Shown in pieces: positions 998 through 7,910 of a DNA stretch of 64,000 nt. The DNA is taken from positions 1 through 64,000 of IMG/VR virus record IMGVR_UViG_3300020048_003367, one strand, 5' to 3'. The stretch is from a virus. The position numbers and the translations under genes are program-made. Each line of letters opens with the position of its first letter. Position 1 is the stretch's first letter. Below the pieces are notes generated by a model. It saw only the letters and a list, made by a program, of their open reading frames with translations, had not been told where the DNA came from and searched no databases.

Positions 998-1024
998 GTC
1001 GTTACCTTTTGTGTTTAAGTTCTA

Positions 1025-1053
1025 ATTATACAACAATTACAGAATGTTGTCAA
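1025..1053 (-). promoter_or_regulatory. sigma70 promoter
   Basis: Perfect TTGACA-N17-TATAAT. Confidence 0.9.
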
Positions 1054-1062
1054 CTGTTTTTT

Positions 1063-1140
1063 TGGTGCGTCCCGAGGAATTCGAATCCCCAACCTCACGG
1101 CTTCGTAGGCCGGTGTTCTATCCAGTTGAACTAGAGACGC
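1063..1140 (-). tRNA. tRNA-Arg(ACG)
   Basis: CGGC-CTACGAA-GCCG, CCA. Confidence 0.92.
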
Positions 1141-1148
1141 ATTGTGAG

Positions 1149-1224
1149 TGGTGCCACGAGCTGGACTCGAACCAGCCACACACAGATTTTCAGTCTGCTG
1201 CTCTACCTGATGAGCTACCGCGGC
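1149..1224 (-). tRNA. tRNA-Phe(GAA)
   Basis: GCAGA-CTGAAAA-TCTGT, CCA. Confidence 0.93.
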
Positions 1225-3063: not shown

Positions 3064-3155
3064 CCATTGAAAAACACACTCTTGAACAGTCCATAAGCGG
3101 TTACTCGCTGTCTCCCTAGGTAACAGGGCGAATCTGTAAGTGTGTTTATCAATGG
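3064..3155 (-). ncRNA. Long-stem element C
   Basis: ccattgaaaaacacact / agtgtgtttatcaatgg. Confidence 0.55.
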
Positions 3156-3226
3156 CGTCGCATACGGGTTACGATCCTGTCTGGTCACCTTTCAAGGTGA
3201 TAACCTCACCAGAAGTCTAATGCGAC
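3153..3226 (-). tRNA. Glu-like tRNA body with a non-7-nt anticodon loop (pseudo- or decoy tRNA)
   Basis: Acceptor GTCGCAT/ATGCGAC-GCCA; TCACC-TTGAAA-GGTGA; T-loop ATCGTAA. Confidence 0.6.
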
Positions 3227-4743: not shown

Positions 4744-4772
4744 AGTATAACACGATGTGCAATATTAGTCAA
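4744..4772 (-). promoter_or_regulatory. sigma70 promoter (tandem, middle)
   Basis: TTGACT-N17-TATACT, extended -10 TG. Confidence 0.8.
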
Positions 4773-4842: not shown

Positions 4843-4871
4843 ATTATAACACTGTTTCAATTATTGGTCTA
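4843..4871 (-). promoter_or_regulatory. sigma70 promoter (tandem, distal)
   Basis: TAGACC-N17-TATAAT, extended -10 TG. Confidence 0.7.
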
Positions 4872-4877
4872 GCACTT

Positions 4878-4908
4878 AAAGAAAAACCCGCATCATGTGC
4901 GGGTCTTT
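4878..4908 (-). terminator. Intrinsic terminator of attenuator 2
   Basis: RC AAAGACCCGCA-CATGA-TGCGGGTTTTTCTTT. Confidence 0.85.
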
Positions 4909-4927
4909 GTGGAATGTAGTACTTTTG

Positions 4928-5026
4928 TTAACTACAATGACAAAGACCTCGCCCACAATCGTGTTCATAGGCCTGCTCATAATTGGCAGGTATGTTTTTG
5001 AACGCGAATGCTGTTTGTGTCATCAT
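4928..5026 (-). CDS. Leader peptide 2, 32 aa, probably leaderless (not in ORF track)
   Basis: MMTQTAFAFKNIPANYEQAYEHDCGRGLCHCS*; ATG 5 nt after TATAAT; 3' part GGTCTTTGT..TGTAGT is the antiterminator strand. Confidence 0.7.
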   Translation of the reverse strand: MMTQTAFAFKNIPANYEQAYEHDCGRGLCHCS

Positions 5027-5063
5027 AGTGTATTATATATATGCCTGTGAACTAAAAGTCAAT

Positions 5064-6590: not shown

Positions 6591-6617
6591 AAGAAAAGCA
6601 CCCGAAAGTGCTTTCTT
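6591..6617 (-). terminator. Terminator after tmRNA
   Basis: RC AAGAAAGCAC-TTTCGG-GTGCTTTTCTT. Confidence 0.8.
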
Positions 6618-6920
6618 GCTATTTTCTGTTACGAGGTATAACTACCCTAGGAAGCTTTTATCAAGCAGCCAATGCGTAGACGGAGTCGTTTGCATTTAAA
6701 GGTTTTGTGTCTACGACCGGGTTACCCCAATCCTAACGGCTTCTACATTGCCGGACTGTCCATTTCAATACTTGTGACCCAATCGATCCTGTGTCATCCC
6801 CACCTAACTATACTCAATTATAGTGAATTATAATAAATTATAGTGAATTATAGTTAGGTGGAGATGGCGGGCACTGCCCCCGCGTCTTGAATCCTTTTCT
6901 GTCTACTTCATACAGTCTTA
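6618..6920 (-). ncRNA. ssrA: Two-piece (circularly permuted) tmRNA, tag ANDSVYALAA
   Basis: Acceptor piece ending GCGGG-GGCAGTG-CCCGC-CATCTCC-ACC (to 6857) precedes coding piece starting GGGGATG (6801); tag ORF 6693-6661. Confidence 0.92.
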
Positions 6921-6926
6921 ACTCTT

Positions 6927-6955
6927 AGTATACTTGAATCTTTATTAATTGTCAA
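6927..6955 (-). promoter_or_regulatory. sigma70 promoter for tmRNA
   Basis: TTGACA-N17-TATACT. Confidence 0.85.
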
Positions 6956-7910
6956 GTAGTGTTTGCTCAACCGCTTGAATCAATCCAGGTGTAAAGGTGC
7001 CTTCGAATTGCTGATACACACTGGCCAACTCTAGCTTGGCAGCATCACGCTGTGCTTGAGTCCACTTGGTGATAGTTGCACCTTGCTCAATCAAGCGCTG
7101 TTCAGCACGTTCACCATCAGCAATGGTTTCTGCACGTTCTTCACGACCGGCCAGGATCGCAGCTTTCTTGACAATTTCTTGCACAGCCGGGCTCAACGAG
7201 TCCCAGAACCTGTCGCCAATGATCATGGAAGTAAGGAACAAACTGTGGCCGGTATCGATCACTGACTTGGTAACTTCGTTCTGACGCAGTGGGAACACAC
7301 GTGGATAGTTGGTTTCACCGCCTTCGGCTAGGCCTTCATTTACAACCTTGAGCAAGTCTTCTACTTCGGCCACAACAGGCTTCATGCCTAGCGCAGACAA
7401 AGTAGCTTGTGCAACTGGGTTGCGGTTGCTGCGAACACCAACCCCAGCCAGTTCAGCCAAGGTGCTTACTTGCTTGTTGGCAATCAACTGACGGAAACCG
7501 CCTGAATAGGTAAAGCTCAAGCCACGCACATTGGATTTGGCAGCTAGCTTTTGCAGTAGAGTTTCGCCAATGTTGCCTTCTAGCACTCGTGTGGCATGGT
7601 CGTGATCTTTAAACAAGAATGGCATGTCAAACACCAAGAAGTCTTGTTCGTACTTTTCGGCCAACCAAGTGGTGTACATCTGGCTCATCTCAATCTTGCC
7701 TTGCTCCATGAGTTCCAACAAATCGTGCTTGGTAACAACCACGCCATTGTTGTAGCGTTGGCTGTACTCAGTCAAGGTCATAATTTCAACCTCGATCTTG
7801 TGTTCAGTTTGCTGTTCATTAACACGGCGCTCGAAGTCTTCGGCTGCACGTAGGAAAAGATTCAGGGGTTCGTGGGCAATAACCCAACGGATTTTAGTAG
7901 TGTTGTTCAT
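6945..7910 (-). CDS. TRAP-type substrate-binding protein (DctP-like) without signal peptide
   Basis: FDMPFLFKDHDHA, GGFRQL, L.G..VR, FWDSLSPAVQEIV motifs. Confidence 0.85.
   Translation of the reverse strand: MNNTTKIRWVIAHEPLNLFLRAAEDFERRVNEQQTEHKIEVEIMTLTEYSQRYNNGVVVTKHDLLELMEQGKIEMSQMYTTWLAEKYEQDFLVFDMPFLFKDHDHATRVLEGNIGETLLQKLAAKSNVRGLSFTYSGGFRQLIANKQVSTLAELAGVGVRSNRNPVAQATLSALGMKPVVAEVEDLLKVVNEGLAEGGETNYPRVFPLRQNEVTKSVIDTGHSLFLTSMIIGDRFWDSLSPAVQEIVKKAAILAGREERAETIADGERAEQRLIEQGATITKWTQAQRDAAKLELASVYQQFEGTFTPGLIQAVEQTLLDN

Follow-up and report, generated by a model that had tools for sequence, protein, structure and literature searches.

A putative leaderless leader-peptide attenuator at the head of a tRNA gene array in a huge-phage genome fragment

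Huge phages characteristically carry large tRNA arrays, and to our knowledge the control of their expression is essentially unknown. In the attenuators of Escherichia coli amino-acid operons (trpL, hisL, leuL, thrL and pheL), a short leader ORF carrying a run of one codon precedes an intrinsic terminator and a set of biosynthetic genes, and the position of the ribosome selects between the terminator and an alternative helix, which uses the 5′ arm of the terminator and thereby excludes it. The stable-RNA genes of rrn operons in turn are preceded by tandem promoters with boxA, and we know of no rrn operon that has a translated leader. In mycobacteria, leaderless polycysteine short ORFs are described, in the abstract of a preprint, as cysteine-responsive attenuators (bioRxiv 10.1101/834739). 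In Anabaena sp. PCC 7120, translational stress induces the trn operon, which is a long array of tRNAs (PMC8421152) and has TrcR as its repressor (PMC10272220). Its control involves direct repeats overlapping the −10 element and the transcription start together with the transcriptional repressor (PMC8421152, PMC10272220), and the terms “attenuator”, “leader peptide” and “terminator” are absent from the main text of both papers. A literature search found no leader-peptide attenuator for tRNA genes.

The leader unit analysed here (5062–4878, minus strand) combines, like the E. coli attenuators, a short leader ORF with an intrinsic terminator. The overlap at the third pairing strand and the covariation of the helices suggest that an alternative helix would use the terminator 5′ arm and exclude the terminator in the same manner, and ribosome position is predicted, in an equilibrium model, to select the helix. 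The unit differs from the E. coli systems in that it probably has neither a 5′ UTR nor a Shine-Dalgarno sequence, its putative control codons form a mixed Tyr/Glu/Asp cluster in place of a single-codon run, tRNAs and not biosynthetic enzymes are encoded downstream, promoters lie between the terminator and the genes, unlike in the trp/his/leu/thr type, and the element is phage-encoded. Rfam returned only a sub-threshold match to Trp_leader (RF00513) at 4878–4963 (25.8 bits versus a gathering score of 41, E 0.13). Read from the sequence, the logic of the unit matches that of enterobacterial leader-peptide attenuators, whereas sequence membership in Trp_leader and a promoter-free interval are both lacking.

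With the mycobacterial polycysteine ORFs the unit shares a short ORF at the 5′ end as the presumed sensor for downstream genes; the mycobacterial system, in the abstract-level description used for the comparison, differs in its Cys codon runs, its operon mRNA targets and the organisms concerned. If the phage switch works, the likeness to the Anabaena trn operon would be that an accessory tRNA array goes up when translation is impaired. The likeness to rrn operons concerns the region downstream of the leader unit, where several tandem sigma-70 promoters and a GTTCCTTAAAAAC element, boxA-like by its sequence, precede the stable-RNA genes.

The DNA analysed (the window) covers the initial 64 kb of an IMG/VR virus record of 101,862 bp with a CheckV completeness of 25%, and on account of this rating the record is a fragment of a huge phage. 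The minus strand of the window holds 27 tRNA genes. A blastn query against GenBank phages gave matches to tRNA-Glu only, and thus no cultured relatives were found. The leader unit sits between a porin gene (5981–5106, minus strand) and the first tRNA gene (Glu, 4356–4282, minus strand), and the head of the array consists of Glu(ttc), Asp(gtc), Tyr(gta) and Asp(gtc) genes (4356–3454, minus strand). The phage-borne porin is of Gram-negative type (Porin_4, E 4e-30) and ends in a C-terminal HRF; homologs with 65–66% identity were identified in three other viral contigs. Further cell-like genes of the window encode Bug/TctC and DctP binding proteins and a radical-SAM enzyme. A tmRNA gene is located at 6592–6962 (minus strand; Rfam permuted tmRNA 109 bits, beta_tmRNA 84 bits), and at 3153–3226 (minus strand) ARAGORN called a tRNA with a two-base anticodon “ga”, to which no amino acid was assigned.

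Homologous units were recovered by porin-gene anchoring, followed by pattern scans at the DNA level, four on viral and two on metagenome contigs, whereas a metagenome scan with a 22-mer from a conserved downstream element gave no match. The resulting family comprises 22 distinct units including that of the window, drawn from contigs of huge phages and metagenomes that measure up to 343 kb. All 22 contain a sigma-70-type promoter, a short ORF and a terminator of the form AAAGACCC...GGGTTTT, and all except L059 and L073 have the GGTCTTTGT...ACAAAGACC hairpin (20 units). Judged by its conservation in 21 further distinct units, the leader unit is not due to chance. Natural variants are available within the family, which uses three reading registers and two types of stop codon and includes two members that lack the hairpin.

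The gene upstream of the unit varies, being a porin in the window and L002, another ORF in L013 and L016, and tmRNA in L034, where the unit lies directly 3′ of the tmRNA gene. Downstream, a tRNA-Glu(ttc) gene with Tyr(gta) and/or Asp(gtc) follows at a distance of 200–600 nt in every unit with enough flanking sequence, and in some lineages Leu tRNAs precede the Glu/Tyr/Asp tRNA genes. Because the upstream gene varies while the downstream tRNAs stay, the unit belongs to the tRNA array.

The initial annotation had described a TTGACT...TATAAT promoter, an ATG 5 nt further on without a Shine-Dalgarno sequence, and a reading frame of 32 codons, and all of these were found on the minus strand: the −35 element TTGACT at 5062–5057, the −10 element TATAAT at 5037–5032, and the ORF at 5026–4928 (ATG 5026–5024, TAA 4930–4928), translated as MMTQTAFAFKNIPANYEQAYEHDCGRGLCHCS. 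The −35 element reads TTGAC or TAGAC in the corresponding position of 20 of the 22 homologs. The spacer to TATAAT is 19 nt in the window, owing to an extra TA, and a TATATA sits at 17 nt, which is the optimal spacer of such promoters; the relatives combine TTGAC/TAGAC with a 17–18 nt spacer and TATAAT or TATACT. In every unit (22/22) the ATG follows the −10 hexamer by 5–6 nt, which places the usual +1 on or beside its A. Since the ATG of the window lies only 5 nt past the −10 element, there is no room for a Shine-Dalgarno sequence, and the leader mRNA is probably leaderless, with no 5′ UTR.

The end of the ORF belongs to the first of two helices that would exclude each other. Strand 2, GCG-A-GGTCTTTGT-CAT-TGTAGT (4952–4931, minus strand), consists of the final ORF codons and pairs with strand 3, ACTACA-TTCC-ACAAAGACC-CGC (4920–4899, minus strand), which from 4908 on may pair with strand 4 instead. 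The resulting hairpin 2:3 (−16.9 kcal/mol, folded without the GCG/CGC extension) brackets the stop codon, which lies 9–18 nt into the hairpin in the 20 units that keep GGTCTTTGT. The intrinsic terminator, AAAGACCCGCA-CATGA-TGCGGGTTTTTCTTT (4908–4878, minus strand; −14.9 kcal/mol, z −5.5), folded better than all of 200 shuffles and is composed of a 7-bp GC-rich core ACCCGCA/TGCGGGT, an A-tract/U-tract extension and a T-run at 4886–4878, the core plus T-run spanning 4904–4878. Its 5′ arm is part of strand 3, that is, of the 3′ strand of the hairpin at the stop codon. The antiterminator strands that had been proposed to bracket the stop codon and to remove the terminator arm are thus present, and both helices covary.

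Among the 19 aligned members, 93% of the cells of helix 2:3 were paired, against at most 56% in slid controls, and changes on both sides occurred at three pairs (e.g. UGA/UCA versus UAA/UUA; A-U, G-C and G-U types). Covariation of this helix was 0.117 versus 0.073 in shuffled alignments (0 of 500 shuffles as high), its invariant 9-bp core partly reflecting the search patterns that demanded that core, and a U-A to U-G change was found in L060. The terminator helix 3:4 was 94% paired, with a covariation of 0.183 versus 0.040 shuffled (0 of 500 as high) and compensatory changes at three pairs across the family. The RNAalifold consensus yielded the terminator only, since the sequences do not align inside the hairpin.

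The overlap of helix 2:3 with the terminator extends over ACCCGC in the window, and in many relatives it is limited to the A-tract and ACC(C) of the GC core; in L002, the MFE structure combines a shortened 2:3 helix with the full terminator. The flank upstream of strand 2 did not track the variable terminator arm, native pairing being better in 12 of 20 units (mean 0.8 kcal/mol), and antitermination over the full arm across the family was dropped as a candidate on this count.

Two family members, L059 (~1006–1200, minus strand) and L073 (1898–2092, plus strand), have no GGTCTTTGT and were found by the promoter alone. Their last codons form a hairpin with differing stems, the loop of which, GCGGG, is complementary to CCCGC of the terminator 5′ arm, and a loop-strand (pseudoknot-type) antiterminator is possible in these two units.

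Two further pairings involve the ORF. A candidate strand 1, ACUAUGAUGACA (5018–5029, minus strand), pairs in the MFE structure with the ORF end UGUCAUUGUAGU (4942–4931). This pairing is retained via a U-A to U-G change in L013 and is weak in the L002 clade; such a strand would be melted by an initiating ribosome. A mid-ORF hairpin, CAUA-CCUGC...GCAGG-CC-UAUG (4994–4966, minus strand), base pairs the AUA codon (Ile12) with UAU (Tyr20). In the other clade this place is likewise occupied by a hairpin, the inner stem of which differs (GUCAUUG/CAAUGAC) and shows one compensatory change, read from the sequence of L024.

On the basis of sequence anatomy, conservation, covariation and equilibrium modelling, the unit probably represents, if only just, a translation-operated transcription attenuator heading the phage tRNA array; the transcription start, the translation, the control by the ribosome and the effect on tRNA levels are what we infer in this reading. 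Host RNA polymerase would start on, or a few bases from, the A of the ATG, and a 70S ribosome would translate the 32-codon ORF from the 5′-terminal AUG, leaderless translation in the host being assumed. Strand 2, which comprises the last six ORF codons, would pair with strand 3, and strand 3 would double as the terminator 5′ arm. A ribosome at the stop codon would cover strand 2, so that strands 3 and 4 would pair and a transcript of ~145 nt would end there. With the ribosome absent, or slowed on a Tyr/Glu/Asp motif 4–11 codons before strand 2, strand 2 would be left free to form the antiterminator, and transcription would run on into the promoter/tRNA region. Slow decoding of the leader would in this way give extra tRNA transcription atop that from the constitutive downstream promoters.

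The proposed switch was modelled by partition function with the U-tract withheld and with a ribosome mask of 27 nt (−15 to +11 around the A site). A ribosome at the ORF end is predicted to cause termination, and one on the Tyr/Glu/Asp motif read-through. The model is an equilibrium and not a kinetic one; it presupposes a start at the ATG, and where the jump falls depends on the footprint chosen for the ribosome. For the window it gave the terminator core a probability of 0.01 with no ribosome, 0.33–0.50 with the A site at codons 10–14, 0.00–0.05 at codons 15–23 except for 0.28 at E21, and 0.69–0.70 from codon 24 through the stop. A step to ~0.8 was obtained for 14 of the 15 GGTCTTTGT-type units modelled; it comes one codon past the conserved Asp, or past Glu in the L002 clade. 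The contrast was weak in L013, the closest relative, and in several members a ribosome further upstream gave intermediate termination, as if the motif region acted as strand 1. In L059 and L073 the terminator was insensitive to ribosome position under the nested-structure model (P 0.64–0.69 throughout). Of the attenuator put forward in the initial annotation, the architecture is supported, with the ORF open in 22/22 units, both helices covarying and the ribosome-mask model fitting, while sensing of specific amino acids is no more than suggestive.

The leader frame is open in all 22 units over 25–35 codons, and the other two frames contain 0–5 stops each, with at least one stop between them in every unit. 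In shuffled sequences the probability of an open frame was 0.14–0.33 per unit; given the common ancestry of the lineages, the product over eight diverged ones, 4e-6, sets an upper bound on significance. No interrupted frame was found among the family members recovered by ORF-independent patterns, and a 6-nt indel between clades leaves the frame intact. The N-terminal halves of the leader peptides, in turn, have diverged almost fully between units. In L049 and L054, GGTCTTTGT is read in the other two registers and the stop still falls 14–16 nt into strand 2, and since the reading register differs while the position of the stop holds, GGTCTTTGT is a signal at the RNA level. As judged from these alignments, the conserved properties of the ORF are its start, its openness and its stopping place.

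Substitutions showed no third-position excess (variable columns by codon position 10/10/14 and 9/8/8), and hence, by this measure, the leader peptide as such is not under strong selection. Weak selection on the peptide sequence is the expected pattern for a leader peptide. These observations also bear on the alternative that the unit is an independent small gene, transcribed from its own promoter to its own terminator and specifying either a micropeptide or a small RNA of dual function, in which the hairpin at the stop would stabilise or process the transcript and read-through would have no regulatory role. The unit does possess its own promoter and an efficient-looking terminator, the strong downstream promoters would make read-through dispensable, and a second short promoter-hairpin unit without an ORF lies at 4871–4783, which suggests that small transcription units typify the region. 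A YE.D motif in the peptide is conserved, and L059 and L073 retain the ORF without the 2:3 helix. However, outside YE.D the peptide is almost free to vary, its C-terminus switches register in L049 and L054, and a PHROGs scan of three leader peptides matched no family. Because a small gene would also leave the sharing of the hairpin 3′ strand with the terminator arm, and the placement of the stop inside the hairpin, without explanation, we consider it unlikely.

Absence of third-position bias would be expected as well if the unit were a non-coding structured RNA or a plain insulator with an incidental ORF, its terminator shielding the tRNA promoters from upstream transcription and its T-run doubling as an UP element. 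The entire leader unit is strongly structured (−46.3 kcal/mol, z −4.65, no shuffle as good), and the T-run lies directly upstream of the next −35 element. Against shielding as the function, the upstream porin gene already has its own terminator (5090–5065, minus strand) and the unit has a conserved promoter of its own; moreover, an incidental ORF is difficult to reconcile with the fixed distance from the −10 element to the ATG and with a frame that stays open in 22/22 units through indels and register changes. Such an origin of the unit is very improbable in our view.

Within the attenuator reading, the sensed signal would reside in the motif YEQAYEHD at codons 16–23 (4981–4958, minus strand), the last Asp of which lies four codons before strand 2. 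All five Tyr/Glu/Asp residues of the window leader fall within this stretch of eight codons. A motif [AT]YE[RHS](E)D recurs in every lineage at 3–4 codons ahead of strand 2, its codons varying synonymously to some extent (TAT/TAC, GAA/GAG, GAT/GAC), and Tyr, Glu and Asp are among the first non-Leu tRNA identities downstream in every member with enough flank (Glu with Tyr and/or Asp). The switch might accordingly sense charged tRNA-Tyr, -Glu and -Asp (Leu in some relatives) and autoregulate the phage tRNA genes just downstream, a possibility that we regard as doubtful. The clustering of the codons, the persistence of the motif despite synonymous variation and the peak of modelled read-through with the ribosome on the motif are consistent with it, as is the agreement between the set of three amino acids and the set of three tRNAs, for which post hoc arithmetic gives a chance of ~1 in 1140. 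Owing to the shared ancestry of the homologs, on the other hand, this agreement amounts to roughly one event.

The Tyr/Glu/Asp window of the earlier proposal is thus clustered, conserved and matched by the first three downstream tRNA identities, but over its full length the leader shows no excess of codons for its own tRNA block (0.25 observed versus 0.25 expected). Its overall E+D+Y content is at background level, and the tandem codon runs of classical leaders are absent from it, which likewise speaks against specific sensing. The pairing of AUA with UAU and the conservation of GAGCGUGA at the nucleotide level point in the same direction, as constraints on the RNA may explain the motif.

The AUA codon had been proposed as part of the sensing window. 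It is kept in 20 of the 22 units and accounts for 1% of the codons in the long ORFs of the window, yet sensing of AUA as a separate claim found no support, since the codon pairs with UAU in the mid-ORF hairpin. Because both codons pair at the base of this hairpin, RNA structure may be the cause of their conservation.

Leucine codons show a partial relationship to the tRNA content. Leu-rich leaders (5–6 Leu) mostly occur with Leu tRNA genes in the block (the L002 clade, L056 and L034), and Leu-poor leaders occur without them (the window, L013, L044, L048, L054, L053 and L073), which would agree with specific sensing. The clear exception is L049: its leader has six Leu codons, but 3.8 kb of sequence contain no Leu tRNA gene, and Val tRNA genes are present while the leader lacks a Val codon. 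The link between Leu codons and Leu tRNA genes was not retained, being suggestive, yet contradicted by L049 and not phylogenetically independent.

The tRNA genes are also served by promoters of their own. The first, TAGACC-17 nt-TATAAT (4871–4843, minus strand), starts 7 nt past the T-run, and two more sigma-70-like promoters were identified in the sequence at 4772–4744 and 4676–4648 (minus strand); all three have a TG-extended −10 element. In every homolog examined, the stretch from the terminator to the tRNAs contains one to three strong promoters, and a promoter at the place of the first one, a few bases past the T-run, is kept in all units. The caveat that three further sigma70 promoters precede the tRNAs was therefore correct and holds family-wide. 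Because these promoters follow the terminator, the arrangement implies that the switch cannot be the main gate and would only add to constitutive tRNA transcription.

Were the unit to work as proposed, the control principle of amino-acid operons would be applied to tRNA genes with a leaderless ORF as the sensor, and the translation status of the infected cell would be linked directly to the phage tRNA supply. It is conceivable, although we think it somewhat improbable, that huge phages autoregulate their own tRNA genes via leader peptides that read decoding speed. Ribosomes slowed on Tyr/Glu/Asp codons (and Leu codons in some lineages) would then cause the terminator to be bypassed and more phage tRNA to be made, and the slowing could stem from depletion or cleavage of host tRNAs during infection. 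Paralogous units before other tRNA blocks, such as the attenuator 1 at 2593–2327, would in that case constitute a modular control of tRNA supply.

Several smaller elements were observed in the region between the leader unit and the tRNA genes. At 4871–4783 (minus strand), ~25 nt past the first downstream promoter, comes a hairpin, GCAAAGACCC...GGGGCTTTTGC, which has only a short T-run and lacks an ORF. The hairpin is kept in L013, L053, L073 and L048, and its base shows a compensatory GC-to-TA change, G[CT]AAAGACCC...CTTTT[GA]C. By its sequence, this element may be a small RNA of ~60 nt or a second, untranslated stop. A 30-nt ACAACTGCTCCGGAAACGGTAGCACTGCTA (4722–4693, minus strand), placed between the second and third of the downstream promoters, forms a stem with a GAAA-loop hairpin and is identical in the four units compared (the window, L013, L002 and L016), in two of which the porins are only 65–66% identical to that of the window. 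The boxA-like GTTCCTTAAAAAC (4609–4597, minus strand) is located past the last promoter and resembles the boxA of rrn operons; variants of it, TTCGTTAAAAATT and GTTCTTTAAAATT, occur at the same place in L034 and L022.

Attenuator 1 (2593–2327, minus strand) has the same type of terminator, AAAGACCCTGGA...TCCAGGGTTTTT, and an upstream CAGGGTCTT that is complementary to AAGACCCTG; it is conserved in L013 (10382–10414) and L053 (8285–8317). Apparent relatives in L062 and L069 carry the promoter of the present unit, the leaderless CATATATA(A/C)T-ACACT-ATG, and the two units may therefore be paralogs. In the 43-codon leader of attenuator 1, 30 of the 43 codons specify amino acids of its own tRNA block (expected fraction 0.53, P 0.017).
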